A stretch of 64,000 nt of DNA from Nitrososphaeraceae archaeon (GCA_035297365.1 DATGZA010000011.1:87609-151608), one strand, 5' to 3'; counted from the stretch's first letter, positions 2,803 to 56,069 are shown. A program made the numbers and translations. Notes: generated by a model not told the origin, from the letters alone.

Positions 2803-2872
2803 AAAAATGTTATTGAACCCTATTAATATACGGGCTCGGAGCGCTTCGAGTTTGACATTTAGTTGGGATCTG
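2803..2872 (+). repeat. att-like composite site L2-core-RB
   Basis: AAAATGTTATTGAACC arm; CGGGCTCGGAGCGCTTCGAGTTTGACATTTAGTTGGGATC at 2831. Confidence 0.85.
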
Positions 2873-2930
2873 TCTTTACAAATTTAAACTTTAACTTTTT
2901 AAAATCAATGTGACCATTTTAAAAAATCTT

Positions 2931-3650
2931 TTACCGTACAAAAATTTTAAAACTAGCCTCCCTCATGGGATCAAATCTTGGTGGTGGACCTTCGTTACCC
3001 TTAAGCAGATCAACAACTTTCAATTCTATGTCATGTTTTCCAGGAGACAGTTCATGCAACAATAAGAAATAACCAGTAGCTAGCGCCTTATATGTGCCAG
3101 GATTGATTGTTCCCCAAATGTCTATTGGGCGCTCGGGAATCGTAATATTAAAAAAGTCAGTTTTAATTAATGATCCAGCAAGATCCACGTTTTTACCATC
3201 TACAGTAACTTTCATGTTGTTAAGGGGAGTAAGAATATTATCAGCACATTCTACTATTTCTGCATCAGTCATCGGACCAGAAGTACCACTATCACAGAAA
3301 GTCGTTGTTATTGGAAGCATGACAGCTTTACCAAGTGGAACATTGCAATTATAGTTGATCTTGCCCTCACCTGGAATAACATCTGGTAAGAACCATACAG
3401 GACCACTTTGCATTACAGAACATCTTTCAGAATCAGAATAATCCTTTACTGGATGTTTGTCGATAGGAATACCTGCCCACCACGTCCACCATTTTGCCAC
3501 CCATTCTGAATAAGGACTGTCATATGGCGAAGAATCTATTGTAAATATGTCAAAATTTGAGCTGGCTATAGTAGTAGTAATTATTCCGTTCCAACTGAGA
3601 ATTATAATAAACAGAATAGGTATTATAATTCGAACAAATAGTGGGTTCAT
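2931..3650 (-). CDS. secreted hypothetical protein (WxxKWWxW / QSGPVWFL family)
   Basis: Signal peptide, conserved Trp-rich motif, paired Cys. Confidence 0.75.
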   Translation of the reverse strand: MNPLFVRIIIPILFIIILSWNGIITTTIASSNFDIFTIDSSPYDSPYSEWVAKWWTWWAGIPIDKHPVKDYSDSERCSVMQSGPVWFLPDVIPGEGKINYNCNVPLGKAVMLPITTTFCDSGTSGPMTDAEIVECADNILTPLNNMKVTVDGKNVDLAGSLIKTDFFNITIPERPIDIWGTINPGTYKALATGYFLLLHELSPGKHDIELKVVDLLKGNEGPPPRFDPMREASFKIFVR

Positions 3651-3761
3651 AGTGAAAAGTATGTCCCTGTTCTTTATTTCTTTTTATATATAGATGTTTA
3701 TCTTACCAACAGTATCTCTAATAAACATGTTTTAGATATTAATAAATAGTAAAGTCTGAGA

Positions 3762-5126
3762 TTGCACGAATCGAAGAAAATTCAATATATTTTTAGTTCA
3801 TCAGGTCTTATTATTGTAGTAGGATTTGTAATTGTTCTACTTCATATAGTTGACATGACCGCAGGCGACACTTGGGCTTTGAACATCAATGACCGTAATT
3901 CGTTTCAATATATAATAATATATTTTATAATCACGGTGACATCACTAGTTATCCAAGCTTTCCTTCTTATGATCTCTATAAAGATAGCATTTACAACCAA
4001 GAAAGCAACCTCGCATCTATCAATGATAACCAGATACCTTTATGTAGGATCACATATGGCAGTAATGGGTTCCATTGCATATTTATTGGCAGAACAAGTA
4101 GTAACATATAGATATCATACGGTATTACTCGAGTTAATAGTAGCACTAAGTTTTATACCATCAATTTTAATCTTCATTTCATTAGCATTCAGAAATCTAA
4201 AGTCATTTTCATCCACTAAAAGAAAAATCGTTATGGTATACGGTATAGCCATAATTGCGATTGCAGTACAATTGATCATTGCCTTTTGTTATATAGAGAT
4301 CAATCTCTATAGTAAACCTGAGATCATAACTCCTGATAGGAATCCATGGGCATCCTATTTCTATACAAGTATCCAAAGTAAAATGTCCGTAAGTTATGAG
4401 ATTAGTGAGGATATTTCCTTTATTATCATATGGATGGCTTCTATATTACTTACTAAACCATATGCACAAAAGATTGGGAAAATAAAATATTCGATAACAT
4501 TGAGTGTTCCAATAATATACTTCCTATTTCAGTATTCTCCACTATTGTTGGAACAAATGGGAACATTAAGTTTTCTTGTTATGGCAGAAGGATCATTATT
4601 TTTATATTTTTACAATTTTGTTTTAAATACAGTTAATATAGGAACGGGAATATTAATTGGAATCTCATTTTACATATTATCTAGATCTTTGGTCTATGAT
4701 GATTTAAAATATTACCTGATAATATGTGGCACAGGAATCATGATTATCTTCAGTAGTGGTGTTTCAACAATCTTAACCTTAGCTCCTTTTCCAGCATGGG
4801 CTATTGTTTCCCTTTCATTTATCTTGCCAGCATCATTCCTATTTTTAATTGGGCTCGATTCAGCAACATATTATATTGCAAGTGACACTTTGATACGTAG
4901 GTATCTGTATAGACATAGGGATCAATTTGGTCTATTCCAAGCTTTGGGTTATACAAAAGCTTCCGACATTGTTGAGCAAAAGGTACGTAAACAACTCGAT
5001 AATCTCAAAGATAAAACATTTTTTGAACCAGTATATGAATTAGAAGATACGAAACAGTATATCCAGAAGGTAATAACAGAAATGAAAGAATCTGATACAA
5101 AAATAGATAGTTCAAAATCGGATTAA
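3762..5126 (+). CDS. multi-pass membrane protein
   Basis: 454 aa with about 10 hydrophobic segments. Confidence 0.7.
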   Translation: MHESKKIQYIFSSSGLIIVVGFVIVLLHIVDMTAGDTWALNINDRNSFQYIIIYFIITVTSLVIQAFLLMISIKIAFTTKKATSHLSMITRYLYVGSHMAVMGSIAYLLAEQVVTYRYHTVLLELIVALSFIPSILIFISLAFRNLKSFSSTKRKIVMVYGIAIIAIAVQLIIAFCYIEINLYSKPEIITPDRNPWASYFYTSIQSKMSVSYEISEDISFIIIWMASILLTKPYAQKIGKIKYSITLSVPIIYFLFQYSPLLLEQMGTLSFLVMAEGSLFLYFYNFVLNTVNIGTGILIGISFYILSRSLVYDDLKYYLIICGTGIMIIFSSGVSTILTLAPFPAWAIVSLSFILPASFLFLIGLDSATYYIASDTLIRRYLYRHRDQFGLFQALGYTKASDIVEQKVRKQLDNLKDKTFFEPVYELEDTKQYIQKVITEMKESDTKIDSSKSD

Positions 5127-5223
5127 TTTTCGATTAAGTTAGGAATTAATTTATGTATATAAAAAGCAATAATCAATTGTATCTACTCTAAAAATAATAA
5201 GTTTTGATCGAGATATTAATTAG

Positions 5224-5293
5224 ATATTAATAAACTTATTAATGAGGGTGCAAACAGAGGATAGTCAACCGTTTTTCACATAATTTTGTAGTT
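5224..5293 (+). repeat. degenerate att-like site L5-RA
   Basis: ATATTAATAAACT...CAAACAGAGGATAGTCAACCGTTTTTCACATAATTTTGTAGTT; matches 35560-35630. Confidence 0.65.
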
Positions 5294-5434
5294 TGATAAT
5301 TTTTGTGATTACCTTATTCCTTCCTTATTTACAAAAGACTTTGATATTAATCAAAAGTTTTGTTATTCAATTCCTTAAACACATAAAATAAGAGTAAGAT
5401 GAGGAGATGCTTCTGTAAAAAAATTTTAGGTAAA

Positions 5435-8354: not shown

Positions 8355-8427
8355 TTGATGTAAAAGAGCCTTGATACTATATGGACTCGGAGGGTAGTAA
8401 ACTGTTTTTGACACAATTTTGAAGTTC
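8355..8427 (+). repeat. att-like site L1-core-RA
   Basis: TTGATGTAAAAGAGCCTTGATACTATATGGACTCGGAGGGTAGTAAACTGTTTTTGACACAATTTTGAAGTTC. Confidence 0.85.
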
Positions 8428-8603
8428 TATATCAAAAATATCCACAAATTGTTCTTACATTCTAACAAAAATACCATCGATATCTCACTTTTGATATGGG
8501 TGTAGAATGGATGAAAAACAATAGTAAATTAGAAAATTTTACATTACTCAACTACTTACCTATTAAAAATTTTTAACGTGATACCTATAATTCTATTTAA
8601 TTA

Positions 8604-9908
8604 ATGGATAGTATAAACAAACAAGTTCCACTTTATCCTCTATTATTAATTAATTTTATAGGAACTTTAGGTTTTAGTATTGTTTTACCTTTTTTGATAT
8701 TTTTAGTCATAGATTTTGGAGGGAATGCTATAGTCTATGGAATACTAGCTGCAGTATATCCTGCATTTCAACTAATAGGAGCTCCATTTCTAGGAAGATG
8801 GTCTGATATTTATGGGCGAAAAAAAGTTCTTCTTGTCAGTCATGGAGGAACATTAATTGGTTGGATATTTTTTCTTTTTGCATTATTTTTGCCTGTTGAA
8901 AATCTTTTTAGTATTAATTCTGCTCTTTTTGGAACTATTGTTATAACTCTTCCTTTACTTGTATTATTTTTTGCACGTTCTATTGATGGGATAACAGGTG
9001 GCAATATTTCTGTTGCCAATGCCTATCTTGCAGATATTTCATCAGATGAAAATAGAAGTAAAAACTTTGGTAAAATGGCAATATCTTCGAATCTTGGTTT
9101 TATTGTGGGTCCCGCATTAGCAGGAATTTTAGGTGCAACTATTTATCAAGAAATATTGCCTGTCTTGGCTGCTCTATTTCTCTCTCTAATTACCTTAATA
9201 GTCATAGGTTTCGCTTTAAAAGAATCAAAGTCTCAATCGGCTGTTACGAAACAAATTCCGGAAGAAGAAAGTGTTAGAAAAGTTTTTGCACATGAATGCA
9301 AAGAATGCTACCAGCCTGAAAATCCAAAGAAACTTAAATTCCAAGATGTTTTCAAGTTAGAAAATATTCCATTTCTAATTGTCTTATATTTTTTTATTTT
9401 CCTTGGATTTAACATATTTTATACATCTTTTCCAATTCATGCAGTAAATGATTTAAAATGGTCAGTAACCGAACTGGGAATATTTTATGCAGTATTAAGC
9501 GGAATCATGGTTTTGGTACAAGGTCCGATTTTGCATAAGTCTTTAAAAAAATTCTCTGAAGAAAAACTAGTTATAATTGGAAGTATCATTTTAGGTACAA
9601 ATTTTATTTTATTTGTATCAAATGATGATATCTTAATTTATGTTGCTGCAATTCTATTTGCAGTTGGGAATGGGCTGATGTGGCCATCTTTTATGTCAAT
9701 GCTTTCGAAGATTTCTGGTAATATATATCAAGGATTCATACAAGGAGTTGCAAGTAGTTTTGGAAGTTTAGCAAGTATTTTTGGACTAACAATAGGAGGA
9801 TTTCTGTACAATTTAATCGGAGGATTTACTTTTCTAATTAGTGCTGGAATCATATTTGCAATTTTTATTATGTCTTTTAGACTATTGAAAATGAAAGTGT
9901 TTAACTAA
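8604..9908 (+). CDS. MFS transporter (TetA/DHA1-like)
   Basis: GRWSDIYGRKKVLL motif A, GGNISVANAYLADIS, 12 TM. Confidence 0.9.
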   Translation: MDSINKQVPLYPLLLINFIGTLGFSIVLPFLIFLVIDFGGNAIVYGILAAVYPAFQLIGAPFLGRWSDIYGRKKVLLVSHGGTLIGWIFFLFALFLPVENLFSINSALFGTIVITLPLLVLFFARSIDGITGGNISVANAYLADISSDENRSKNFGKMAISSNLGFIVGPALAGILGATIYQEILPVLAALFLSLITLIVIGFALKESKSQSAVTKQIPEEESVRKVFAHECKECYQPENPKKLKFQDVFKLENIPFLIVLYFFIFLGFNIFYTSFPIHAVNDLKWSVTELGIFYAVLSGIMVLVQGPILHKSLKKFSEEKLVIIGSIILGTNFILFVSNDDILIYVAAILFAVGNGLMWPSFMSMLSKISGNIYQGFIQGVASSFGSLASIFGLTIGGFLYNLIGGFTFLISAGIIFAIFIMSFRLLKMKVFN

Positions 9909-10004
9909 CTAATTATAAAAAATAAAAAAGGTCTATCAAAATAGGATGTTATAGTTTAAATATAGTCTAAATTAAGCAATGTTTACCATTTTTTTTATTC
10001 TTTG

Positions 10005-10078
10005 AAAAATGTTATTGAACCATACTAATATAGGGGCTCGGAGGTTTGTAAAATGATTTTGACACAATTTTGTAGTTC
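10005..10078 (+). repeat. att-like site L2-core-RA
   Basis: AAAAATGTTATTGAACCATACTAATATAGGGGCTCGGAGG...ATTTTGACACAATTTTGTAGTTC. Confidence 0.85.
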
Positions 10079-11610: not shown

Positions 11611-11873
11611 TTCACTAAAAAGTATACTATAGGAAATTTAAAGAATAGGTTTACAAAGTATTAAAAAATAATTATTACAAGAGAAAAAAAACAATCTGCA
11701 ACGATAAATCTAAAGTAATTTAAAGCAAGAAGGAGATTGTAAAAAATCTTCCTGTTTGTAAATTAAGAGAGTTAAGTGGATATCATATCCTCGGTTATTA
11801 GTATTATATTAAAAAAATATATTTTGCATTTGAACTGAATTTAGTTATATATCAAAAACTTACAGCTGCAGAG

Positions 11874-11912
11874 AGACGATAATCAATTGATTTTGACACA
11901 ATTTTGTAGTTC
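11874..11912 (+). repeat. att-like site, RA arm (core degenerate)
   Basis: TCAATTGATTTTGACACAATTTTGTAGTTC. Confidence 0.75.
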
Positions 11913-12101
11913 ACAAAAAAGAAATGTTGTAAATTGATTAGTAATATTTGAATGCAAATTAACTAAAAATAAAGAGGCAGAACCTTACTAACTAGATGCA
12001 AAATTTCTTATACTGATCGCCCATGTAAGATGTGTTATAACCTTACTCTAAGTTTTGGTTATTGACTTGAAGATAGAAACAAAATAGAATTATACTGGAT
12101 A

Positions 12102-13028
12102 ATGTATGGCAATTTAATGGAAAGATTTTTTTGGACCCAAAAGGAGGACATCGGTGCTTCACCTAGAACGGATCATTCAATGTGCTATGACTCTGATAAA
12201 GAGAAAGTAGTGCTTTTTGGGGGTGTGGCTGCCGGTACTAATCGTCTAGGTGACACTTGGATATGGAATGGCAATGAATGGACTCAAGTATCTGATACCG
12301 GACCATCACCAAGATCCGGTTCGGATATGGTTTATGACTCTTTTAGAAAAAAGTCTGTTTTATTCGGCGGCTATGCCGGAGGTTTGCCAACTGACCACTT
12401 TAATGATACTTGGGAATGGGATGGCCATGAATGGACTCAAGTAGCTGATACCGGACCATCAGCACGTCGAAATCATGCTATGGCATATGATTCCACGAGG
12501 CAAAGAGTAGTATTATTTGGCGGAGCACCCTTTAATGGTCCGTTTTTTAATGATACTTGGGAATGGGATGGCAATGAATGGACTCAAGTAGCTGATACCG
12601 GACCATCAGGACGCCATGCACACACTATGACGTATGATGAGTCTGCACAGATCGTGTTATTATTTAGTGGATCAACATTAATCGGGAGCTCAGTGGGAGA
12701 GACATGGGGATGGGATGGCAATGAGTGGACACACTTGCAGCATCTAGGCCCTGGCCGTTTAGTCGGATCACCTATGGTATACACAGTTCACGGTACAATT
12801 CTTTTTGGAGGAAAAACTGTAAATGACGAAGTAAATGATAATACTTGGCTGTGGGACGGTCCATTTTGGACTCATACTCAAGATATAGGTCCTAGCGCTA
12901 GATACGGTCATGCCCTCGCTTATGATAGCAGAAGAGATAGAGTAGTACTATTTGGTGGAGGAGTAGTTGCTGCTGGAATGCCACCTCTTGGTGATACATG
13001 GGAACTCAAAATAGAACCAATCTCATAA
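12102..13028 (+). CDS. kelch-repeat beta-propeller protein
   Basis: Six repeats of GPSxRxxHxMxYD...VLFGG...DTWEWDGxEW. Confidence 0.9.
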   Translation: MYGNLMERFFWTQKEDIGASPRTDHSMCYDSDKEKVVLFGGVAAGTNRLGDTWIWNGNEWTQVSDTGPSPRSGSDMVYDSFRKKSVLFGGYAGGLPTDHFNDTWEWDGHEWTQVADTGPSARRNHAMAYDSTRQRVVLFGGAPFNGPFFNDTWEWDGNEWTQVADTGPSGRHAHTMTYDESAQIVLLFSGSTLIGSSVGETWGWDGNEWTHLQHLGPGRLVGSPMVYTVHGTILFGGKTVNDEVNDNTWLWDGPFWTHTQDIGPSARYGHALAYDSRRDRVVLFGGGVVAAGMPPLGDTWELKIEPIS

Positions 13029-13260
13029 ATATACATTATTTTTTTGTTCTACTTGATAATAATTTTATACAAGGATTATGTAAAAAATTTATGTCAAATC
13101 TGTTTCCTTTGACAACAACGTATTTAAAAACAATTTATAGACAAATTTTATTAAATAATCATAAAAGGTAACAAATGAGATTTTAACATTAGATTTTAAC
13201 ATTATTTATAAGGTTAAAATTTTTGACCTTAAAATTACGTTAGTTTAGATTTAAGAATAT

Positions 13261-13306
13261 TGGAGGGGCTTAGAGTATTACATGGATTTTGATCCGGTAA
13301 CATAAT
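13261..13306 (+). repeat. degenerate att-like site core-RB
   Basis: GGAGGGGCTTAGAGTATTACATGGATTTTGATCCGGTAACATAAT; tail shared with 18696. Confidence 0.55.
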
Positions 13307-13735
13307 ACTGGTTATAGCTCATTACCTAAAATGATCTATTTTTTTTATTTAGTATTACATATCGTCCCTTTATTAATTCATTTATATCTTTAAAAATCCA
13401 TCTTATTTATTCTAGAAAATTTTATATATTATTGATATTTGTTAATTTTAAAATGTGAATCAAATTTTTGTTAAATCTATTAGTATCTCCCCCTTATCAT
13501 CATAATACTATTAGTGTCATACATTGTACCTTGCATATTTGCACAAGATGAATCATCAGAGGTAATGTCTTCTATGAAATTTTAGGATTTAGATTGATAT
13601 AAATAGTAACATGTTTATATTTCAGTGAAGCGATTAAACTATTTGCGATAGCGATAGAATTTTGTGATACAAGTTATTTAAGAAAGATATTTAATTCTTG
13701 AATTTGTTTAAATATTGGTACTCTAATGTAGTCAT

Positions 13736-14137
13736 ATGTTAGGAGCAGAAATAGGTCATGAAGAGGGTCAGATTATTGGACGTAGAGTGTTGGAGGAAGT
13801 TCCCAAAATAGAAAATACGTTTAATGCGGAGGGTAGTTTTAGAGGAATAGATATCAACGATCTAGGAACTTATTGGACCACTGTAAGACCAGGAGGAGTA
13901 TTATATGGAGAGGGACAAGGAGTCTTAGTTAGTACAGATGGTCAAATGGCTACATGGACAGCACAGGGATTGGGTCGATATATATCTTCAAGAGTAATAA
14001 GATTTCGCGGTAGTTCATTTTATAGAACAGATTCAACAGGAAGTCTTGCTTTTCTCAACAATATGATGGCAGTTTTTGAATTTGAAATAGATGAACGAGG
14101 TAATACGTCCGCAAGAAATTGGGAATGGGAATTTTGA
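13736..14137 (+). CDS. conserved hypothetical protein
   Basis: 133 aa; GTYWTTVRPGGVLYGEGQG...LAFLNN. Confidence 0.75.
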   Translation: MLGAEIGHEEGQIIGRRVLEEVPKIENTFNAEGSFRGIDINDLGTYWTTVRPGGVLYGEGQGVLVSTDGQMATWTAQGLGRYISSRVIRFRGSSFYRTDSTGSLAFLNNMMAVFEFEIDERGNTSARNWEWEF

Positions 14138-14263
14138 CTAAAAATAACCAATATTGTTATTTTTACTTTTATTCTTTTGTCTCCCTTTTTATCAATTTAA
14201 TTTAGTTTAATTATAGTATCTATAAACACTATAATTATCTTTTCCAAAGAACTTATTTCATTT

Positions 14264-14320
14264 CAAATGGTTGACGGGCTCGCAGGTGTATCAACTGTTT
14301 TTGGCACAATTTTGTAGTTC
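14264..14320 (+). repeat. att-like site L3-core-RA
   Basis: CAAATGGTTGACGGGCTCGCAGGTGTATCAACTGTTTTTGGCACAATTTTGTAGTTC. Confidence 0.85.
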
Positions 14321-14374
14321 CCTTTAGAGATATTTATAAAAGATATTTTCTTACTAACATATAGATAAACAATA

Positions 14375-17279: not shown

Positions 17280-17368
17280 AATGAATTAAAGGTTAAAAGA
17301 TCAAACATGTTGTTGTGATAATAGGGACTGGGAGAAGACTTAGAGTACGACATGTACTTGGAATTGGT
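17280..17368 (+). repeat. degenerate att-like site L4-RB
   Basis: ATGAATTAAAGGTTAAAA arm (shared with 36185) then GACTTAGAGTACGACATGTACTTGGAATTGG. Confidence 0.65.
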
Positions 17369-17551
17369 TTGTGAAAAGTATTATATATTTATATCAAAGT
17401 AATTCACAGTAATTAAAAATTATTCCCTATATTATAGTAACATAGATATTCTTATAGGAAAATAATATTGTGATTCTGTGAAAGTATTGATTATAAAATA
17501 AGATTTCAAAATAAGTAAATTCATAACTACCTTTGAGCTGTTTTAGAATCT

Positions 17552-37930: not shown

Positions 37931-37980
37931 TATGGAAAATTGCAATTTAGATATTGATTAAACATTATAACCTAAAAGAG

Positions 37981-40235: not shown

Positions 40236-42437
40236 ATGTTGTTTTATAATTTGACTAATAATATAAACAGAGATATTTTAGTAGATTCTACAAAGAAACT
40301 TAATCCTAAATACCTTGCAAAAAACAATCCCGTAATGTTTACTGTAGAATTAGGCTTTTTTATAGTATTATTTATTGCAATATTTCCTAACATTTCAGAA
40401 ACATTTGTTAGTCAACATCAAATATTGTATATTGAAACTTCAATGATACTGATACTTACTGTATGGTTTGCAACATTTTCTGAATCTTTATCAGAATCTC
40501 AAGCAAAAGCAAGAGTTGATTCTCTTAGAGGATTGGAGAAAGAAGTAACTGCCCACAAATTAGTACATGGAAAAGAGAGTAGCATTACATCATCAAGTTT
40601 AAAACCAGGTGATGAAGTGCGAGTATATGCTGGCGAAATTATACCTAGAGACGGATTAGTTATTGAAGGTAAAACGTTTGTTGACGAGTCAATGATGACA
40701 GGAGAGACCAATCCAATATTCAAAGAAAAAGATGACCATGTAATAGGCGGAACAAGAGTTACAACAGACAGTATAATAGTTGAAATAACTGCTGAAGTTG
40801 GAAAAAGCTATCTTGACGAGATGGTAGGCATGGTAAAAAATGCAACAAGACCAAAGACTCAAAATGAGATTGCTTTAACAATACTGTTAGCAGGATTATC
40901 ACTTATCTTCATAACAATAATAGGGACATTACTATTTGTAGGTCATTTTCTTGGATACAAAACAGATATTGCATCTTTAGTTGCACTTTTAGTTGCTCTA
41001 ATGCCTACTACCATTGGAGGACTTCTACCTGCTATTGGCGTTGCTGGTATTACAAGAATAGGAAAAGATAACATCATAGCTAAATCAGGAAAGGGAATTG
41101 AAGCTGCTGGTGATTGTGATGTACTGATACTTGACAAAACGGGTACAATTACAGAAGGCAGTAGAAGTGCCATATCCTTTATACCTACACATGGATATAC
41201 AGAAGAAGATGTAGGGCAGGTAGCATTCGCAGCATCTATCCATGATACAACTCACGAAGGAAAATCAATAGTGGATTTGGCTGAAGAAAAAAAATATCTG
41301 CCCCCTTTGCTGGAGCAAATAATAACTGCAAAACCAATAGATTTTTCAGCTGAAACAAGAGTAAGTGGACTTGAATTTATTACACATAAAAAAAGAATTA
41401 ATTTGAATAAAGAACAAGAAGAAGAATTTAGAGACATAGCAAAAACAATACAAGATAAAACTCGTATAGATGATTCCTTACCAATAGATACGATAGAAAA
41501 AGCTATTGATGAATCAAGCAAAAGCAAAGTTCACAATATGTTATTGCAATTAGAACATTCGGATAAACCTATAAAAATCCTAAAAGGAGCAGTTGATGTT
41601 ATATTAGAAGCAGCTAATCCACAAACCAACAAAGCGGAAATCAAGTGGAATGCTCAGGAAATATCTCAAGAAGGTGGTACACCTATAGCTGTATCTATCA
41701 ATAATCATATAATTGGTCTTATAGTTCTAAAAGATAATCTAAAAGAAAACATCAGAGAAAAACTTGCAGAAGTTCATGCGACAGGTATAACTACAATTAT
41801 GATTACAGGTGACAACAAACTAACAGCTGAAGTAATTGCTAAAGAAGCTAATGTTAATGAGGTAATGGCAGAAGCAAAACCTACTGATAAATTAACGAGA
41901 GTGATAGAAGAGCAACAAAAAGGACACATCATAGGTATGGTAGGTGATGGAACAAATGACGCACCTGCGCTTGCAAAAGCAGATATTGGATTGGCAATGA
42001 ATAGTGGAACTGCTGCTGCCAAAGAAGCAGCCAACATGGTTGATTTGGATTCTGACCCATCAAAGATACTAAAAGTTGTAAAACTTGGAAAGCAATTGCT
42101 CATGACCAGAGGAGCTATAACTACATTTAGTATAGCCAATGATGCTGCTAAATATTTTGCAATATTACCAGCAATGTTTATGGAAAACAATCCTACAATA
42201 GCAGCACTCAATATAATGCAATTACATAGTCCTCAAACTGCAATACTATCTACTTTAATCTTTAATGCATTAATAATACCAGCACTTATTCCTATTTCGT
42301 TAAAAGGAATCAAATTCAAAGCAGAATCACTAGAAAAAATATTTGTAAAGAATATCGTTGTATATGGAATAGGTGGAGCAGTATTGCCTTTTGTTGGAAT
42401 CAAGGTAATCGATGTTCTGCTATCTATTTTTATGTAA
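40236..42437 (+). CDS. kdpB: potassium-transporting ATPase subunit B (P-type ATPase)
   Basis: NPVMF, PTTIGGLL, DKTGTIT, GDGTNDAPALA, TFSIANDAAKYFAILP. Confidence 0.96.
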   Translation: MLFYNLTNNINRDILVDSTKKLNPKYLAKNNPVMFTVELGFFIVLFIAIFPNISETFVSQHQILYIETSMILILTVWFATFSESLSESQAKARVDSLRGLEKEVTAHKLVHGKESSITSSSLKPGDEVRVYAGEIIPRDGLVIEGKTFVDESMMTGETNPIFKEKDDHVIGGTRVTTDSIIVEITAEVGKSYLDEMVGMVKNATRPKTQNEIALTILLAGLSLIFITIIGTLLFVGHFLGYKTDIASLVALLVALMPTTIGGLLPAIGVAGITRIGKDNIIAKSGKGIEAAGDCDVLILDKTGTITEGSRSAISFIPTHGYTEEDVGQVAFAASIHDTTHEGKSIVDLAEEKKYLPPLLEQIITAKPIDFSAETRVSGLEFITHKKRINLNKEQEEEFRDIAKTIQDKTRIDDSLPIDTIEKAIDESSKSKVHNMLLQLEHSDKPIKILKGAVDVILEAANPQTNKAEIKWNAQEISQEGGTPIAVSINNHIIGLIVLKDNLKENIREKLAEVHATGITTIMITGDNKLTAEVIAKEANVNEVMAEAKPTDKLTRVIEEQQKGHIIGMVGDGTNDAPALAKADIGLAMNSGTAAAKEAANMVDLDSDPSKILKVVKLGKQLLMTRGAITTFSIANDAAKYFAILPAMFMENNPTIAALNIMQLHSPQTAILSTLIFNALIIPALIPISLKGIKFKAESLEKIFVKNIVVYGIGGAVLPFVGIKVIDVLLSIFM

Positions 42438-42452
42438 TGAGGATAGAACCGA

Positions 42453-42983
42453 GTGAAAAAAATAATGAACAACAACAATAAACAAAGAATAAAAAACTTT
42501 CTTTCTGATAATTTAGTCTCATCAATTAGAATAGTAATAGTGATGATGATTTTAACAGGAATTGGTTATCCCGTTTCACTTGTAATTATTGGACAAGTGA
42601 CTTTACCCTATCAATCTCAAGGAAGTCAAATCATTTGGAATGACAAAGTTATTGGTTCTGAACTTATAGCTCAGGAATTTACATCTTCGAAATTTTTTCA
42701 CAGTAGACCAGCAACTGATTCAGCTTCTACAGTAGACCCTCATATAACACCTGAATATGCATATCAACAAATATCAAATGTAAGTAAAGCAACACAAATT
42801 CCAGAAAATGCATTGAAAACTTTAATTGACCTTAATATAGAAAGAAATAAGGTAAGTAATTTGATTGTATTTGCTCCAAAATATGTCAATGTATTTGAAG
42901 TAAATTTAGAATTGGTAAAACAATATCCTGAAATATATTCTGTACCCACAACGGAATTAGGTAAAAAAACGGATATATCATAG
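42453..42983 (+). CDS. kdpC: potassium-transporting ATPase subunit C
   Basis: LTGIGYP, GSELIAQEF...FHSRP, DPHITP, VNVFEVNLEL. Confidence 0.92.
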   Translation: MKKIMNNNNKQRIKNFLSDNLVSSIRIVIVMMILTGIGYPVSLVIIGQVTLPYQSQGSQIIWNDKVIGSELIAQEFTSSKFFHSRPATDSASTVDPHITPEYAYQQISNVSKATQIPENALKTLIDLNIERNKVSNLIVFAPKYVNVFEVNLELVKQYPEIYSVPTTELGKKTDIS

Positions 42984-42999
42984 GAGGTGATATGAGTAG

Positions 43000-43086
43000 T
43001 TGGAACTTATTGTTTATGCTTTTATTACATTTCTTTTTGTATCTTCAATTTTCTTATCTTACTCCTTGATTAAAGCAGAAAAATAA
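43000..43086 (+). CDS. kdpF: KdpF-like small membrane peptide (28 aa, TTG start)
   Basis: Hand translation MELIVYAFITFLFVSSIFLSYSLIKAEK*; AGGAGGTGA ribosome-binding site at 42982-42990. Confidence 0.6.
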   Translation: MELIVYAFITFLFVSSIFLSYSLIKAEK

Positions 43087-43351
43087 ATAGAGCTAGTTGG
43101 CTCGATATGGGGAGTTTAGATAGGTGCAGTTATATGATATTTCTTTGGTTCTAAACCTGTAATTCAAGAGTGGGACTCGAACCTTGAAGCCATATTTCGG
43201 GGTATATACGCTACATAGTTGATAAAATGTTAATGTGGAAATGAATTACGAAAAATGAAAAAATAAAGTTTAGATAAAAAGTTGATTTTTAAATTATCTA
43301 GTACTGAAAAATCAAATATATTATTAGTGAATATAGGTCTATAGACTTAGG

Positions 43352-44704
43352 TTGGATAAGGATAGAAAAAAGATTAGGTCATATTCAACTCAGGCAAAGT
43401 TATCTTTACAAGCAATCCTAAAATCTATTGGTCCAAGTATAATTACAGGAGCAGCAGATAACGACCCATCAGCCATAACAACTTATTCTCAGGCAGGAGC
43501 AAAATTTGGATTTGGTCTTCTTTGGCTAGTTATATTTCTCTATCCATTCATTACAGTAATAGTCGGTATCTGTGCAAGAATTGGTATAGTAACAGGAAGT
43601 GGTTTGACATCAATTATATCCAGAAAATATTCAAAAAAGATTGCCCTTCCAATAGTATCTCTTCTTCTTATTGCTAATATAATAAATATAGGTGCAGATT
43701 TAGGAGCCATTAGCGGTTCTTTCGAACTTTTATTTCCTCAAATTCCCATCATTATTATTTCAATAATTTTTTCAGCCGTTATCTTACTAGCAGAAATTTT
43801 CATTTCCTATAATAAATACTCAAGAATACTAAGGTATCTCACATTAACTTTACTTGTCTATTTTATTACAGCACTTATTGTAGGGGGAAACTGGAATGAA
43901 ATATTATCATCCTCTTTACTACCTCATATAGAACTATCATCAGAATTTTTGATGATGATTGTGGCCATTTTTGGTTCTGCTTTGTCTCCATATCTGTTAT
44001 TTTGGCAGACTTCTGAGGAAGCAGAAGAAGATGTTGCCAAAAATAAATTAAAGGAAATAAGAGGAGGAAGATTTGAAAAGCTGAAGATATCCAATAGAGA
44101 AATCAAATTAGTAAAAGTTGATGTGGCAATAGGGATGGCATTTGCAGTATTTATTATGTGGTCAATTATGGTAACAACTGCAGGAAGCCTTCATGCTAAT
44201 GAAATATATGAAATACAGACTGCAAAACAGGCTGCACAAGCACTAGAACCCCTAGTTAAAAAATTTCCTTATTCAGGTGAGACATCAGAAATAATTTTTG
44301 CAATAGGCATAATCGGAACAGGACTCCTTGCGATACCTGTTTTAGCAGGAACCTGTGGATATGCATTGTCTGATTTATTAGGATGGAAGGAAGGCTTAAG
44401 CAAAAAATTTAGTCAAGCAATACCATTTTATCTTGTAATACTTATCTCAACATTTATTGGGTTAATAATCAACTATGTGACTGCAATAAATCCAATTCAG
44501 ATGTTATTATATGCTGCAACTATTAATGGCATTATTTTAGTTCCAATATTAGTATTAATAATGAGAATTGCTATTGACAAGGACATACTTGGTAATAGAA
44601 TTAATGGATTATTTTCTAATGTTGTTGGCTGGTCTACTGTTATAATATTAAGTGTATCAGTACTAGCCTTTATGTTTTTAAATTTCTTTAAACTTTTATT
44701 TTGA
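43352..44704 (+). CDS. NRAMP/MntH-family divalent metal transporter
   Basis: GPSIITGAADNDPSAITTYSQAGA, SPYLLFWQTSEE. Confidence 0.9.
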   Translation: MDKDRKKIRSYSTQAKLSLQAILKSIGPSIITGAADNDPSAITTYSQAGAKFGFGLLWLVIFLYPFITVIVGICARIGIVTGSGLTSIISRKYSKKIALPIVSLLLIANIINIGADLGAISGSFELLFPQIPIIIISIIFSAVILLAEIFISYNKYSRILRYLTLTLLVYFITALIVGGNWNEILSSSLLPHIELSSEFLMMIVAIFGSALSPYLLFWQTSEEAEEDVAKNKLKEIRGGRFEKLKISNREIKLVKVDVAIGMAFAVFIMWSIMVTTAGSLHANEIYEIQTAKQAAQALEPLVKKFPYSGETSEIIFAIGIIGTGLLAIPVLAGTCGYALSDLLGWKEGLSKKFSQAIPFYLVILISTFIGLIINYVTAINPIQMLLYAATINGIILVPILVLIMRIAIDKDILGNRINGLFSNVVGWSTVIILSVSVLAFMFLNFFKLLF

Positions 44705-44844
44705 TATAAATAATATATTCCAGGCCAGGATTCGAACATCAAAAACGCATTCCGCTAGATTGAAATCTAGCAAAAATAAGTGACAGAACATACAAAGACA
44801 TAAAATAAAATTACAAGTTGCTTGTAACAATACACCGGCATACC

Positions 44845-45237
44845 ATGAAATGTTTGTCATTAAAACAGCCTTTTGCAGACCTTTTAGCTCATGGTGAAAA
44901 GACAATAGAGCTAAGAAAATGGAATACTTCATTCCGAGGAGAATTTCTAATTCATGCTTCAAAAACTATCGATATAGAATCCTCTGAAAGACTAGATATG
45001 AATAGCAACAAGTTTACAATAGGAGCAATAATAGGTTCTGCTTTTCTATATGATGTTAAAGAATATAGTAATCGAGAAGAATTCGAAAAGGATAGACACA
45101 AACACTTTTCTGTGATTACCAAGTATTTTGAAGGTTATAGATATGGTTTCTTGATTAGAGATGCAAAGTTGTTAAAAAATCCAATCCCTTATCCAGGCAA
45201 GTTAAGATTCTTTGAAGTTGATGAAAATATAATTTGA
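44845..45237 (+). CDS. ASCH domain protein
   Basis: MKCLSLKQPFA...GEKTIELRKWNT.FRGEFLIHAS; likely start at ATG 44845. Confidence 0.88.
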   Translation: MKCLSLKQPFADLLAHGEKTIELRKWNTSFRGEFLIHASKTIDIESSERLDMNSNKFTIGAIIGSAFLYDVKEYSNREEFEKDRHKHFSVITKYFEGYRYGFLIRDAKLLKNPIPYPGKLRFFEVDENII

Positions 45238-45463
45238 AAATAATATACAACAGTGTCATATCTTCTGCAACATCCAATAGCTAAATCTAATTGTTAAAAT
45301 TACTTAAAGTTATAATACCTATTATAATTTTAAATCATAAAAATTAGGTTGCTAATATTATAAAAATTTATACTTGAAGATACTATTACTTATTCTGTTG
45401 TTTCACCAAAATAATCGTGGTCTGATTTCTTTACCGAAATAATTAATGATAGTTTTCATTCGT

Positions 45464-45718
45464 TTATGACTCCTCTTCTCCTACGGGTTCTCTAATTGCT
45501 TGAATCTGTCCGCTTTTGAACTGAGTGTCGATAGAGACCCAGAGAGGTTTTTCATATCTTAATATATTTATAATATCATTAAACCTATCTATATTATAAA
45601 AAATATCAAATGTTCCATCTTGGTTTATGATATTCTTAGGAAGAGGTGACTCGTCTACAAATCTAAGTGTGCCGATACTGTTGTTGTCCTTATCGGAGAG
45701 GTGTATATATGCACTCAT
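45464..45718 (-). CDS. hypothetical protein, probably 5'-truncated by RA site
   Basis: RFNDIINILRYEKPL...EPVGEEES; the ORF-track N-terminus MQNCVKIS is just the RA repeat read on the minus strand. Confidence 0.5.
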   Translation of the reverse strand: MSAYIHLSDKDNNSIGTLRFVDESPLPKNIINQDGTFDIFYNIDRFNDIINILRYEKPLWVSIDTQFKSGQIQAIREPVGEEES

Positions 45719-45732
45719 TCTAGGCACTGGCT

Positions 45733-45769
45733 GATGATTATCACTGATTTTGACACAATTTTGCATTTC
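45733..45769 (+). repeat. att-like site, RA arm (core lost)
   Basis: GATGATTATCACTGATTTTGACACAATTTTGCATTTC. Confidence 0.7.
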
Positions 45770-47101: not shown

Positions 47102-47144
47102 CGGGCTCGGAGGGCTTCGAGTTTGACATGTAGTTGGGATCGGT
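47102..47144 (+). repeat. att-like site core-RB (consensus copy)
   Basis: CGGGCTCGGAGGGCTTCGAGTTTGACATGTAGTTGGGATCGGT. Confidence 0.9.
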
Positions 47145-47162
47145 AATCTTGTTTTTATATTT

Positions 47163-49970: not shown

Positions 49971-50098
49971 ATCGTTTTGATACCTTTCAGAAGTTCGCTG
50001 AGATACTAATATTCATAAAATTCAATGAGCAAAGTAGCATTATTCCTGTTTGCAAGTGCATCTACTTTTTTCAGAATATTTGCTAACTTTGTTGGCAT
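49971..50098 (-). pseudogene. tyrosine-integrase N-terminal stub (copy B)
   Basis: MPTKLANILKKVDALANRNNATLLIEFYEY..(frameshift)..RTSERYQND; resembles thaumarchaeal integrase N-termini (recalled, not searched); ATG 59 bp from core at 50157. Confidence 0.65.
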
Positions 50099-50145
50099 CT
50101 TCCTGATGACTCCTGTTCACTTCTAGTATCTATAGTATATGAGCC

Positions 50146-50202
50146 CAATTGGTTGACGGGCTCGGAGGATTGTCAACTGTTTTTGACACAATTTTGTAGT
50201 TC
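50146..50202 (+). repeat. att-like site L3-core-RA (consensus copy)
   Basis: CAATTGGTTGACGGGCTCGGAGGATTGTCAACTGTTTTTGACACAATTTTGTAGTTC. Confidence 0.9.
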
Positions 50203-50785: not shown

Positions 50786-51122
50786 GTTGTTGATGTTATA
50801 TTGGTTCTGAGGTCTTGGAGTATGTCATGTAATTGGGATCGGTTTTCTGTTATTTTATTTTACTTTGTAATATCAAGATCAGTGTGAAGACAATATGTTA
50901 ACTCGGGCAGTTGAATTCGAACTCCTAAGGAGTAGAACTGGATTTGTATCAATTAAATAGATGATATATTTGCTTCTAGATCTAACTATTTTTAGGATCA
51001 GACATTACATCAATATACCTGTAAATATTCTCTATTATAAATAAAGATAAACCACTTTGTTGTAATTATAATTGCGATTACATCCTCATGCGGCACCGTG
51101 TGTTTCCGGAACGAAGAAAGTG
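50786..51122 (+). repeat. att-like site L4-RB plus ~280-bp non-coding tail
   Basis: GGTTCTGAGGTCTTGGAGTATGTCATGTAATTGGGATCGGTTTTCTGTTATTT...ATGTTAACTCGGG...TTCGAAC...TCTATTATAAATAAAGATAAAC...TCCGGAACGAAGAAAGTG; matches 55770-56069. Confidence 0.8.
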
Positions 51123-54057: not shown

Positions 54058-54599
54058 TTCCAATACATCCCAAAGGCCATGTTCTTTACCAAAGGTAAGT
54101 GAATTCATATAGATTACTTAAATAGTTTCGAGCTTACCTTACGTGATGCAAGGATCTCAGAACTCAATATTGTAACTGCTTCTGGTATCTAATCTCCAAA
54201 ATGTAAAATCATAACTATTTCAGAAAGAAGAAAATATCCTATCCCTAGACAATTTACTTTCGCTGTCATTGCAAGATCATCTACCAATGAATCTAATAGA
54301 TTAATTGCTGCCTCAATTGGACTAGCAAATCGTAAAGAAGAGGAAAATACGGATATTTATCAGAACGTCATGCTACAAGAGAAACAGCTCCGAAAGCTGG
54401 AAATTATGCTGAAGATATGGCAGCAGAAATGTTAGCTACAACTATGGGTCTTCCACGATCCTTCTTTAAAATGGGATGATAAATATATCAATGGAGGTAT
54501 CAGGTAAAACTTACAAGGGCAAAATTATATCTAACCTGCCGAAGGTATATGGATGGATCGTGGTCCACAGTTCTAAGTGCAGCAGTTTTCATCCTTTGA
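54058..54599 (+). pseudogene. pdaD: pyruvoyl-dependent arginine decarboxylase pseudogene
   Basis: YIPKAMFFTKGK*IHIDYLNSFELTLRDA...NRLIAASIGLA...[15 protein letters not shown]...WSTVLSAAVFIL; several stops and frameshifts. Confidence 0.85.
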
Positions 54600-54809
54600 T
54601 GAGTAAATAATGTATGTGTTTTTGATTACAAATCTTGTTTAATTAATAAAAAAATGGAGGAAAACTCTATCTTCGATTTCTAAAATTGGCAGTAGTATTA
54701 TTGTTTACAGGAGAATAATTTTGGGTAGCTCTTTATATAAAAATTGTGAGAAAAGATTGTTGTAACTTAGGATCAATTTAATATCATTCAAAATGTAAAA
54801 ATTATAATA

Positions 54810-55286
54810 ATGGTCATAATAGAATTCGTTACTGAAAACGAAATAAAATTTCTAATTGGAATAGGTATTTCTCTATTTGCTGGATTTGTTATCGGAATCG
54901 AACGAGAAGCAAAAAAGAAACCTACCGGGATAGGTACTATTACATTAGTAGTAGCAGGTGCAATGATATTCACTAATCTTTCAAATATTGTGGATCCAAA
55001 TTCTACCTCTCGTATAGCTGCTCAAATAGTTACAGGTATAGGATTTTTAGGAGCAGGAATTATTATTAAAGGACCTGAAACCACTAAGGTAAAAAATGTT
55101 ACCACTGCAGCCACGGTATGGTTTGCTGCTGCAATAGGAATGGTAATTGGTTATGGTTTTTATCTAATAGCAATAGTCTTAGTAATTTTTGCTGCAACGG
55201 TACCCAGAATACCCAATATTACTGATCTAAATTTCTATAAAAATAAAAAGACAATGTCAAACAACATACAGGATGATGATATTTAA
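54810..55286 (+). CDS. MgtC/SapB family membrane protein
   Basis: IGIERE..KKPTGIGT, SRIAAQIVTGIGFLGAGII, TTAATVW. Confidence 0.92.
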   Translation: MVIIEFVTENEIKFLIGIGISLFAGFVIGIEREAKKKPTGIGTITLVVAGAMIFTNLSNIVDPNSTSRIAAQIVTGIGFLGAGIIIKGPETTKVKNVTTAATVWFAAAIGMVIGYGFYLIAIVLVIFAATVPRIPNITDLNFYKNKKTMSNNIQDDDI

Positions 55287-55372
55287 TGCAATTTTTAATG
55301 CGTTTAAAATTTTGTCGTTATACAATTCCTTTCCTTCCTTTCTATAATTGCTGATCTATCTTCCTGATGCTG

Positions 55373-55586
55373 TTAAGTTAAGACTATTTCACCTCCAATT
55401 TTGGATACAATTTTGTTTCTTATTTTTGCGTTATACAGATAAACAAATAATTTGATCCAATTGTATACATGCTTTACATCACATTTTATACTATTCTTGG
55501 TACATGGATAGTAGCCATCAAAACATTCTGTTCTATCCTTGAAATACTGCATCATCCTTTCAATCAGACTTTTCTCAAATGGTGAG
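55373..55586 (-). mobile_element. IS6-family transposase C-terminal remnant
   Basis: SPFEKSLIERMMQYFKDRTECFDGYYPC...HVYNWIKLF. Confidence 0.75.
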
Positions 55587-55742
55587 TTTGATTTTACATA
55601 CTTATGAGTATCGTTATTTCTTTTGGATCTTCAAGTTATCTGCTAACTTATGATAAACTTATAAAAATGTTATTTTTGATCAAAAGAAATATATATTTAT
55701 CTCTGAATTGTTGTATTTTCTATAAAATATATTGCAAATCAT

Positions 55743-56069
55743 TTGATGTAGCAGAGCCTTGATATAATACGGGCTCGGAGGGCTTCGAGTATGACATGTA
55801 GTTGGGATCGGTTTTCTGTTATTTAATTTTATTTTTTATTATCAAGAATAGTGTAAACACCAAATGTTAACTCGGGGGCTATGATTCGAACCCTACCCAA
55901 AATCTCAGGGGTTAATATCAAAAGTATCAATACGTAATTCAGTTATTTAGATCAATATAACTACACATATTTTCTATTATAAATAAAGATAAACTACTTT
56001 TATCGTAATTGCTTATACAATAACCTTCTTATCGACTACTCGGCTTGTATATCCGGAACGAAGAAAGTG
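55743..56069 (+). repeat. att-like site L1-core-RB plus non-coding tail
   Basis: TTGATGTAGCAGAGCCTTGATATAATACGGGCTCGGAGGGCTTCGAGTATGACATGTAGTTGGGATCGG; tail homologous to 50841-51122. Confidence 0.88.

Follow-up and report, generated by a model that had tools for sequence, protein, structure and literature searches.

The DNA analysed here, a stretch of 64,000 nt that we call the window, comes from a soil ammonia-oxidising archaeon with about thirty small groups of accessory genes standing head to tail over more than 100 kb, separated by copies of a 12-nt core (CGGGCTCGGAGG). Each core copy was part of a composite site with the architecture left (L) arm, core and right (R) arm. All 22 composite sites of the initial annotation were found when each listed position was examined, every one on the + strand, and no additional site was found in the window. 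The ten sites described as having right arm RA were all recovered by a profile search of the whole genome (E 5e-5 to 2e-17), as were nine of the 12 described as having right arm RB (E 2e-9 to 4e-18); the remaining three (13261, 18656 and 36185) had, after a core or decayed core, a right arm of a third type, RC, which contains AGGGTTCGGTAACATAATA. The core with at most one mismatch was matched nine times in the window (0.00 expected, 100 shuffles), and the RA 22-mer with at most three mismatches was also matched nine times (0.00 expected from shuffles).

The RA sites were located at 5224-5294 (L6 arm, decayed core at 5249-5260, E 4e-11), 8355-8427 (L1, core 8382-8393), 10005-10078 (L2, core 10033-10044), 11867-11912 (decayed core, E 3.5e-8), 14264-14320 (L3-like, core 14275-14286), 21168-21238 (L1, core 21193-21204), 28643-28699 (L3-like, exact core 28654-28665, also found by the core search), 35560-35630 (L6, decayed core), 45724-45769 (RA arm only, core lost, E 5e-5) and 50146-50202 (L3, exact core 50157-50168). 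The RB sites were at 2803-2887 (L2, core 2831-2842, E 1.3e-14), 17280-17382 (L5, decayed core, E 1.9e-9), 20097-20153 (L7 and core), 26061-26117 (core), 27873-27973 (L4, decayed core), 32745-32846 (L4 and core), 47102-47158 (exact core, also found by the core search, 43 nt 3' of the stop codon of a Vgb-lyase-like gene), 50786-50857 (core variant) and 55743-55826 (L1, exact core 55770-55781, E 3.9e-18), the last being the last detectable site of the contig. The RC motif and the core search identified the site at 18656-18707 (exact core); the decayed site at 13261-13307 had an RC-like arm with four mismatches to the motif and was missed by the RA and RB profiles, and the one at 36185-36280 (L5 arm, core-like sequence, RC-like arm) reached only E 0.42 with the profile.

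The R arms were near-identical across unrelated units, and both RA and RB were found paired with each of L1, L2 and L7, showing free recombination of the arm types. On the left side, 140 of 266 flanks matched none of the seven L-arm types defined, which counts against the explanation favoured below. Single-stranded folding of eight sites gave z values from +0.72 to -2.30, with two of the eight at -1.9 or below; at the other six folding was no better than in shuffled sequences, and an end-to-end hairpin was absent. The sites had no match to Rfam families at the gathering score. TATA-like runs were present in the L1 and L2 arms, and RA contained a short hairpin followed by T's.

The sites divided the window into 21 units of 0.64-9.5 kb (median about 1.85 kb). 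The gene calls made from the sequence at the outset (MFS, ADH, kelch, Hsp20, Tag, LLM, PNPOx and Vgb) were borne out by Pfam; several units held 2-5 genes, and the largest, the 9.5-kb unit opened by the 36185 site, contained kdpABC/Nramp/ASCH. Both strands were used, 22 of the 36 ORFs of at least 100 aa being on the + strand, and the orientation of the sites, which were intergenic and often 50-100 nt past a stop codon, was constant regardless of the direction of the flanking genes. The MFS cassette (8394-10044, +) consisted of an RA arm, a 434-aa MFS gene (8604-9908), an L2 arm and a core, and had the 8355 site as its left boundary. No tRNA gene was found in the window. An intact integrase had been reported as absent from every unit, and indeed none of the 21 had one, PF00589 matches being absent from the whole contig (C11). 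Two N-terminal integrase remnants were present on the - strand, one at 50006-50098, directly left of the L3 arm (90% identical to the cognate integrase over residues 1-31, and 93% over residues 1-30 in a second comparison), and the other at 62146-62292 (residues 1-49, 78% identical), where a GC-rich 293-bp insert stands in the place that the L3 arm and core would occupy.

The profile search of the whole 2.52-Mb genome (G000), counting sites at E<0.01, gave 34 matches, 29 of them on C11, all on the + strand and within 4% of the genome, so that the clustering and co-orientation anticipated by the initial annotation were observed; the other five were on contigs C6 (two), C26 (two) and C60 (one). 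The array had been described as starting at 2803, which is only the share of the window: it begins 47 kb further left, at C11:40402, and reaches window position 55.8 kb, 8 kb before the contig ends at window position 64000. The island measures no less than 103 kb here; in the relative G017 its length is about 221 kb. Site scores increased toward the window (rho 0.40, p 0.03, n=29). The C11:40-85 kb segment was largely collinear with G017 (91-95% identity), the distal sites being decayed and syntenic between species, while the window matched G017 only in scattered pieces; the part far from the tRNA is conserved and decayed, and the window part variable.

The anchor of the array could be identified in relatives. 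Read as its reverse complement, the core matches the final 12 nt of tRNA-Arg(TCG) without a mismatch, and the RB arm extends the match by 7 nt, in agreement with the proposal that the sites carry a duplicated tRNA 3' end; the exact match was seen in G017, G010, G006, G022 and G003. As also proposed, arrays of relatives ended at an intact tRNA gene; a tyrosine integrase lay alongside it. In G017 this gene is at G017:C10:1147352-1147426, and in both G017 and G010 the order was tRNA, L3 arm and, about 60 nt further, the start of the integrase. The L3 arm adjoining the G017 tRNA is that of the 50146 site of the window, where the integrase remnant also lies. When the search started from the tRNA, an integrase adjoined it at three (G017, G010 and G003) of the eight loci whose flank was 240 nt or longer, and was absent at the other five. 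The tRNA end of the array is not assembled in our genome, from which tRNA-Arg(TCG) is missing; the tRNA gene that the initial annotation expected to the right of the window would lie past the end of the contig. Counting from the tRNA of G017, the first four sites point away from it, the next 27 are inverted and the last two are correct again; the 27 would fit a single inversion, assumed to be of about 185 kb.

The G017 gene past arm L3 encodes a 436-aa tyrosine integrase of the P0001 family. Five of six family members scored 26-28 bits with PF00589, the family matched PHROG_1 'integrase' (E 4.5e-14), and R180, K208, R298, W320 and Y330 were invariant in the alignment; no match at E<=1 was detectable with solved structures, IntI included. 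Genes of this type in relatives (at least 74% identical) always had a core 60-70 nt upstream, and were also found inside arrays adjoining ordinary sites. The integrase units carried cargo only, with no replication or virion genes seen, and many integrase copies in relatives were frameshifted. In our 97%-complete genome no intact cognate integrase was found, and PF00589 had no match on C6 either. Integrase-like matches were found in 13 of 72 metagenome contigs, adjoining L3 or L7 arms, and none of the 13 was full length; no remnant was found in units with L1, L2, L4, L5 or L6 arms. The remnants of the L3 and L7 units imply that at least some units were once autonomous; the initially proposed integration of integrase-less cassettes in trans is putative. 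The lack of an intact integrase here, together with that of any full-length copy in the metagenomes, makes present-day integrase activity in this genome doubtful.

The same cassettes were found in other species in changed order. The MFS cassette was 95% identical in G014, where its neighbours on both sides were different; homology stopped at the last base of the core, and the neighbouring arms differed (L1 vs L3 on the left, RA vs RB on the right). Between G000 and G014, 14 of 52 ends of homology blocks lay within 60 nt of a core, compared with 1.95 expected (maximum 7 in 2000 draws), and in the 72 metagenome contigs a core centre was no more than 40 nt away from 37 of the 93 internal ends of homology, compared with 5.4 expected (maximum 14 in 1000 draws). 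The breakpoints of synteny and homology thus coincided with the sites far above chance, which places unit boundaries and breaks of homology at the core. In G017 two RA sites precisely enclose a 3260-bp unit at a place where G000 has only one site, and one gene between two RB sites had opposite orientations in G014 and G000. C6 carried a 1.3-kb unit that was 99.2% identical to its G017 counterpart, compared with 91 to 96% for the collinear C11 blocks, and the two differed in their tRNA-side neighbour (RB vs RC arm). Since 38 of the 52 and 56 of the 93 homology ends were away from sites, and several G000/G017 indels had no site within hundreds of bases, the island is also reshaped by other processes. 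No excised circles or empty sites were seen in assembled contigs of public runs, in which such joints are confounded by paralogous sites. With clustering, co-orientation and breakpoints at the sites, the initial annotation stands against the observations that it had named as contrary to it, namely sites scattered in both orientations or breakpoints elsewhere.

The RA arm was multi-copy in 24 further genomes of the genus, where the sites were clustered and co-oriented; judging from these genomes, this kind of array is present in all 24 sampled species. Co-orientation was also seen in 41 of 45 independent multi-site metagenome contigs, in which the median distance between sites was about 1.4 kb. 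A density of one site per 1.4-3 kb is unusual.

The locus is probably best read as a hypervariable island anchored at tRNA-Arg(TCG), formed by repeated tandem site-specific integration, whose units are now mostly without integrase. A P0001 tyrosine integrase would recombine the attP core (L arm, core and R arm) of a circular element with the same 12 nt at the tRNA end, or with one of the core copies that the array already holds. With every insertion the tRNA would stay intact and one core copy would be added, giving co-oriented junctions made up of the L arm of one unit, the core and the R arm of the next. Loss or decay of the integrase genes would then reduce the units to 1-3 accessory genes with their arms retained, and later recombination between cores would delete, insert or reorder units. 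We infer that a P0001-type integrase is the catalyst and that circular intermediates exist. That units without integrase are still mobile in trans is plausible, at slightly less than even chances. Against the favoured reading speak the unassembled tRNA end, the lack of an intact integrase, the homology ends away from sites, the left flanks outside the seven types, the inversion to be assumed in G017, the inverted gene in G014 and the absence of excised circles and empty sites from the contigs. An unlikely alternative is that every unit arrived autonomous and lost its integrase by deletion, the units now being fixed relics that never move and the differences in order between species reflecting independent acquisitions and deletions. 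The remnants beside L3 and L7 arms in the window and the metagenomes, the frameshifted copies in relatives, the decayed and syntenic distal sites and the lack of an intact cognate integrase here would all be expected from it. However, the boundaries of the MFS cassette are identical in G000 and G014 between different neighbours, and parallel identical deletions are unlikely; the C6 unit exceeds the collinear blocks in identity and has changed its tRNA-side neighbour, R arms are near-identical in unrelated units, and units with L1, L2, L4, L5 and L6 arms have no remnant.

These same cross-species cassettes with changed neighbours, as well as the arm shuffling and the co-oriented sites at intervals of 1.4-3 kb and the 1-3 cargo genes of each unit, could be taken for a true functional analogue of an integron, with integrase and tRNA as a dedicated capture platform and the units as purpose-built cassettes, exchanged between species, whose arms of about 100 nt would be the equivalent of attC. 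The integrase adjoining the tRNA in G017, G010 and G003, and the integrase units with cargo only, also agree with it. We consider this quite improbable, because the integrase is not fixed to the platform (absent at five of the eight tRNA loci, found inside arrays near ordinary sites), the remnants show units decaying from autonomous elements, and the genes lie in both orientations, which leaves no common promoter logic. The intergenic position of the sites, often shortly after a stop codon, the TATA-like runs and the RA hairpin would suit regulatory or RNA elements (promoters, terminators or small RNAs) or transposed MITE/REP-like repeats that are not recombination sites. This is extremely improbable, since the core is a tRNA end with an integrase alongside, homology breaks on it, the sites keep one orientation irrespective of how the flanking genes point and 29 of 34 copies are confined to 4% of the genome, unlike dispersed MITEs or REPs; the lack of an Rfam match and the folding also argue against it.

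Integron attC sites are imperfect palindromes that form a single-strand hairpin and have RYYYAAC/GTTRRRY ends. The GTTGACG and AGTCAAC motifs seen by eye do not fit this consensus. Of the integron-like character initially proposed, the co-oriented sites between small cassettes stood; an IntI fixed at the head of the array was not found (no PF00589 on C11 or C6, integrase adjoining the anchor at only three of eight tRNA junctions), nor was an attC fold, and with 22 of 36 ORFs on the + strand and several units of 2-5 genes the cassettes are not, as in integrons, mostly single ORFs that run in the direction of the array. For lack of IntI and of an attC-like fold, and with genes in both orientations, the array is not an integron. 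As described for chromosomal integrons and attC clusters, archaeal ones included (PMC9668308), relatives have their cassettes in shuffled order and the sites of one lineage resemble each other more closely, but here a tRNA-end core lies in the middle of a two-armed site and the integrase itself belongs to a mobile unit. In the main text of that study Nitrososphaeria and Thaumarchaeota have no occurrence.

The features of accretion islands were found instead: a repeat that is a tRNA 3' end, a recombinase beside the att site (in relatives) and units without recombinase. CIMEs are att-flanked units without recombination genes that are placed in tandem by site-specific recombination and can be moved by the integrase of a neighbour; in Streptococcus, CIME arrays consist of a few units beside a conjugative element. 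Our units share the flanking att sites, the missing recombination genes and the tandem stacking, but they number in the dozens, conjugation genes were not observed and any mobilisation is putative. Such accretion beside ICESt1-type elements of Streptococcus is cited in the account of the Dehalococcoides ssrA islands (PMC3146451). These tandem islands are the closest precedent, and since islands without integrase are already described as accreting in tandem at such genes (tRNA or tmRNA), the array cannot be called a new system, as had first been suggested. According to that account, islands are stacked downstream of ssrA within about 100 kb, bounded by short direct repeats of the 3' end of the gene, with a syntenic, apparently fixed far end and niche-adaptive cargo; many lack the integration module, which has six genes and a serine recombinase and targets the tmRNA, and are proposed to be cis-mobilizable (PMC3146451). 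Stacking at one small-RNA gene, 3'-end repeats, integrase-less units, a syntenic far end and niche-adaptive cargo are common to both. In contrast to the 28 direct repeats reported there across the available genomes (40 alignment positions including ssrA copies), a single genome has about 30-35 repeats here, and the units, with a median of 1.4-1.9 kb, are much smaller. The recombinase here is a tyrosine recombinase, the target tRNA-Arg and the host an archaeon instead of a bacterium. Cryptic integrated elements of Thaumarchaeota are described as having tyrosine recombinases, tRNA gene targets and att sites of 8-26 bp, with tandem site reuse and post-integration loss of integrase noted (PMC6563490; review PMC8371274). 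All these traits, including the very short att, are shared by our array, but the tandem cases noted there are pairs, and an array of tens of 1-3-gene units is not known from them.

Relative to known accretion islands, the array stands out by its density, and it occurs in every sampled species of the genus (24). It is possible, although rather unlikely, that the whole genus maintains a locus dedicated to gene capture, making up 4-6% of the genome, which would work like a chromosomal integron but have an independent evolutionary origin and use the classical combination of a tRNA att site and a tyrosine integrase. Units of 1-3 genes would keep conserved two-armed sites of about 100 nt, and integrases carried by only part of the cells would act in trans to excise and reshuffle these units and to exchange them between species.

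The composite site was found on the + strand at all 22 positions named by the initial annotation. Read 5' to 3', it consisted of a variable left arm (types L1 to L7), the core CGGGCTCGGAGG, intact or decayed, and a conserved right arm. The right arm RA has the sequence ATAGTCAACTGTTTTTGACACAATTTTGTAGTTC and RB the sequence GCTTCGAGTATGACATGTAGTTGGGATCGGTTTTCTGTTATTT; the class described as "RB or its variant" had to be divided, as three of its members (13261, 18656 and 36185) carry instead a third arm, RC, which includes AGGGTTCGGTAACATAATA. The core and the RA 22-mer were each matched nine times, against 0.00 expected from shuffles of the window. No Rfam family was found in the window at gathering score. 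The genome (2.52 Mb in 110 contigs, 31% GC) encodes an archaeal AmoA, and the window is the final 64 kb of its contig C11. When the whole genome was scanned with profiles derived from the sites, 34 matches were obtained at E<0.01, and they were clustered and co-oriented as anticipated: 29 of them, without exception on the + strand, were located at C11:40402-143434. As the C11 sites run from 40402, the array starts 47 kb to the left of the window. No recombinase was found directly before this start (C11:33-44 kb), where GAF-HTH, NHL, glyoxalase and MBL genes are located.

The remaining profile matches were on C6 (two), C26 (two) and C60 (one). The sites of C26 (39510 and 52696) and those of C60 (49116 and 49708) form pairs, and a DUF4760 gene precedes a C26 site, as it does the site at 1,176,668 of G017, a 10-contig genome of the same genus; C26 and C60 may be unjoined pieces of the C11 island. 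The L2 arm (ATGTTAyTGAACCCT, for example at window 10005-10032) is the inverted complement of the RC motif AGGGTTCGGTAACAT (for example at 18689-18707), so that an L2-core-RC site would have a 15-nt inverted repeat around the core, which could represent candidate paired arm-type binding sites.

The cargo initially named was borne out by Pfam, which added more families. Genes for a Rieske/FMN reductase, DUF5996, two MFS transporters, two ADHs, a kelch protein, Hsp20, a methyladenine glycosylase, a PsbP-like protein, a cyclase-receiver protein, LLM, ferritin, BNR, two PNPOx proteins, a Vgb-lyase-like protein, PhoX, MgtC and CHRD were located in the window, and array genes were found on both strands. 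Besides genes for an Nramp transporter and an ASCH-domain protein, the biggest unit (9.5 kb, window 36230-45736) holds the complete kdpABC operon; an entire potassium-uptake system is thus contained in one unit.

Comparison with G014, a relative of the same genus, indicated that the sites are recombination junctions. Many units were present in G014 arrays with 84-95% identity and in a different order, and 14 of the 52 block ends between the two genomes were at most 60 nt from a core, against 1.95 expected (maximum 7 in 2000 draws), in agreement with the earlier criterion that breakpoints should coincide with the sites. The MFS unit (window 8394-10044), which comprises an RA arm, the MFS gene, an L2 arm and a core, was 95% identical in G014. 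The homology extended exactly to the final core base, and the unit's neighbours in our genome and in G014 were L1 versus L3 on the left and RA versus RB on the right. No core was found within 330 nt of the MFS homologues (84-90% identical) of ten further genomes, so that among the twelve loci examined the compact MFS cassette was common to these two genomes only. A 3260-bp unit of G017 was located exactly between two RA sites where our genome has a single site; the other indels between these two genomes were away from sites. In both our genome (window 26570-27550) and G014 (locus L045, 7631-8654), two RB sites enclose the LLM gene, but its orientation relative to them is reversed from one genome to the other; the homology ends 330-490 nt from the sites, and recombination at the core does not account for the reversal.

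Metagenome contigs picked solely by an exact core-RA match (72 contigs, 287 kb, 165 sites) showed co-oriented sites in 41 of the 45 that had several, with a median spacing of about 1.4 kb. Internal homology ends, which are not mutually independent, were at most 40 nt from the core centre in 37 of 93 cases, against 5.4 expected (maximum 14 in 1000 draws), and many of these were within the core itself. The arm types combined variously, L1, L2 and L7 each being seen with RA and with RB.

With at most 3 mismatches, the RA arm was detected in all 24 other genomes of the genus, in multiple copies in 22 of them and as a single match in G012 and G018, and in none of 16 genomes that represent 16 other families of the order. 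With at most 2 mismatches, in a draw of 150 genomes of the family, it was detected in 20 of the 21 belonging to the genus and in 6 of 129 from 17 other genera, the latter with just 1-2 copies. Related loci were found in MAGs of uncultured soil Nitrososphaerales or Nitrososphaeraceae, and viral contigs gave no match to the RA pattern.

Read as its reverse complement, the core together with the initial bases of RB matched the 3' ends of tRNA-Arg genes, and the exact match to the core was tRNA-Arg(TCG). In the intact G017 copy (C10:1147352-1147426), the last 12 nt exactly complement the core and the adjoining bases continue as RB. ARAGORN found no tRNA gene in the window, and tRNA-Arg(TCG) was not assembled in our genome. 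The tRNA-Arg(TCT) on C79 and the tRNA-Arg(CCT) on C14 were rejected as its anchor, as each matches the core with one mismatch and has no adjoining sites. Of the 25 genomes of the genus, nine yielded tRNA-Arg(TCG) in a tRNA-first search, one copy being decayed, and in three of the nine loci a contig ended within about 700 nt of the tRNA's 3' side. These contig ends are probably caused by repeats that break short-read assemblies, and the island would thus explain why the gene was found in so few assemblies of the genus. In G020 (L030, C59), the same 12-nt core forms the end of an intact tRNA-Arg(CCT) that contains an intron and is followed by an L7-type arm and an integrase with 61% identity to P0001, the 436-aa integrase of G017, which implies that a second tRNA-Arg gene can be the anchor in some species. 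In the nearly site-free G012 (L076, C17:109190-109265), a decayed sequence resembling tRNA-Arg(TCG), not called by ARAGORN, is followed by an L7-like arm and may be an eroded or mostly emptied anchor.

In G017, the reverse complement of arm L3 is located immediately 3' of tRNA-Arg(TCG) and the P0001 ORF starts about 60 nt beyond. P0001 matched PF00589 at 26-28 bits, as did five of six aligned relatives, and the PHROG_1 "integrase" at E 4.5e-14; R180, K208, R298, W320 and Y330 were invariant in the alignment, and the C-terminus carries a CxxC...CxxC ribbon. In the family alignment (A1) this zinc ribbon is conserved at residues 360-385 and precedes a long helix, a combination for which no description was found in the available portion of an archaeal recombinase review. 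The structure predicted from a six-sequence alignment had a mean pLDDT of 55, falling below 50 over the catalytic region, and sequence and profile searches against solved structures gave weak zinc-ribbon matches only.

The earlier statement that no intact integrase is present was borne out: there was no PF00589 on C11 or C6, and the genome had no intact member of the P0001 family. At window 50006-50168, the same L3 arm as in G017 follows a remnant with 90% identity to integrase residues 1-31; further remnants were found at window 62146-62292 and to the left of the L3 site at C11:60521. Integrases at least 74% identical to P0001 always had a core 60-70 nt upstream, either that of the tRNA itself (G017 and G010) or that of an internal core-RA site (loci L041 and L032), and those with 58-63% identity were mostly without a nearby core. 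Among the eight tRNA-Arg(TCG) loci whose 3' flank spans at least 240 nt, which were searched tRNA-first and are hence unbiased, an integrase adjoined the tRNA in three (G017, G010 and G003) and in none of the other five. No accessory gene was conserved with the integrase, save a 67-aa ORF common to two loci, and integrase-bearing units had no replication or virion genes; that of G017 encodes a SIR2-like protein and unknowns besides the integrase. As the integrase was present at three of eight anchors in otherwise unlike units, it belongs to a mobile unit and does not form a fixed platform.

After the second window remnant, a 293-bp segment (62293-62585) with 54.6% GC, against about 30% in its flanks, occupies the exact place of the expected L3 arm and core. 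It is unique in the genome, and a minus-strand ORF (62143-62421) places the start of a DUF1326-like protein in frame with the integrase N-terminus. Either capture of foreign DNA at the att site or a chimera of the assembly could account for the segment.

The array also showed polarity. Its tRNA-distal part (C11:31.7-50.6 kb) was collinear in G014 and C11:1-85 kb was largely collinear in G017, while the window matched scattered pieces only of the 350 kb of G017 compared. Site scores increased from the distal end to the window (rho 0.40, p 0.03, n=29), which fits new units entering close to the tRNA and sites decaying at a distance. The G017 array extends from the tRNA to about 1,368,700 (roughly 221 kb, 33 sites); counted from the tRNA, the first four sites and the last two have the expected orientation and the 27 between them are inverted, which fits one inversion of about 185 kb within the array (about 1,170,000-1,361,000). 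Along C10 (L020-L065) the sites switch to the plus strand near 1.17-1.18 Mb and return to the minus strand near 1.36 Mb. No recombinase was found at the left flip point (1.170-1.177 Mb), where LLM, PNPOx, patatin, ADH, aldehyde dehydrogenase and DUF4760 genes are located.

Whether the units still move was judged from several observations. A 1.3-kb unit of our genome (L004, C6:194-1509) shared 99.2% identity with C10:1152037-1153351 of G017, which is the second unit counted from the tRNA there, against 91-96% for collinear C11 DNA, and its tRNA-side neighbour was unlike that in G017; from sequence comparison, it may be a recent transfer between species. It carries a 185-aa ORF of no known family. 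Its identity with a changed neighbour, together with the compact MFS cassette, would argue for present mobility. The missing intact integrase, the incomplete integrase matches of the metagenome and the ambiguous joints of the soil runs argue against it. None of 13 integrase-like matches in metagenome contigs was full length, most being N-terminal stubs. The comparison with four soil runs used contigs, which cannot reveal circles; it gave a joint from 11913 to 14321, RA arm to RA arm, in one X5 contig, and loose ends beginning at 26064, within the core (X6 and X9), and at 10006 and 10014. Since several other joints and loose ends were paralogous sites of our own genome, the joints and loose ends in soil contigs are only a weak hint.

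The description "integron-like" given initially holds for the outcome but not for the machinery, because integrons have IntI and an attC fold, whereas this array has no IntI, its sites have no attC-like fold and, unlike in integrons, its genes are in both orientations. Archaeal integrons, as far as the main text of PMC9668308 goes, have canonical attC sites and IntI, and that text does not mention the lineage of our genome. The closest precedent found, within the portion of the source available, was the tandem ssrA islands of Dehalococcoides, with 20-bp repeats of the tmRNA 3' end within 100 kb and 15 islands that have no integration module and were proposed to be cis-mobilizable (PMC3146451). 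For Thaumarchaeota, integration at tRNA genes, short att sites, elements paired in tandem and loss of the integrase are described in PMC6563490 and PMC8371274, in the available portions of which no array like the present one was found. Full-text searches on archaeal mobile elements with Nitrosocosmicus, on the genus and on genomic islands of AOA likewise gave no description of such an array.

The array is a real, large, genus-wide accretion island anchored at tRNA-Arg. Ammonia-oxidising archaea drive soil nitrification and, to our knowledge, little is known of how they acquire accessory genes. Here, one locus brings together, in exchangeable units, genes for transporters (MFS, Kdp, Nramp and MgtC), redox enzymes, stress proteins and DNA repair, and it differs strongly between species while the remainder of the contig is collinear. 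Its conserved core and arms could act as PCR handles for surveying the cassette pool of soils. The array is an archaeal counterpart of bacterial accretion islands and integrons, and a concrete, testable route of niche adaptation for an uncultured genus.
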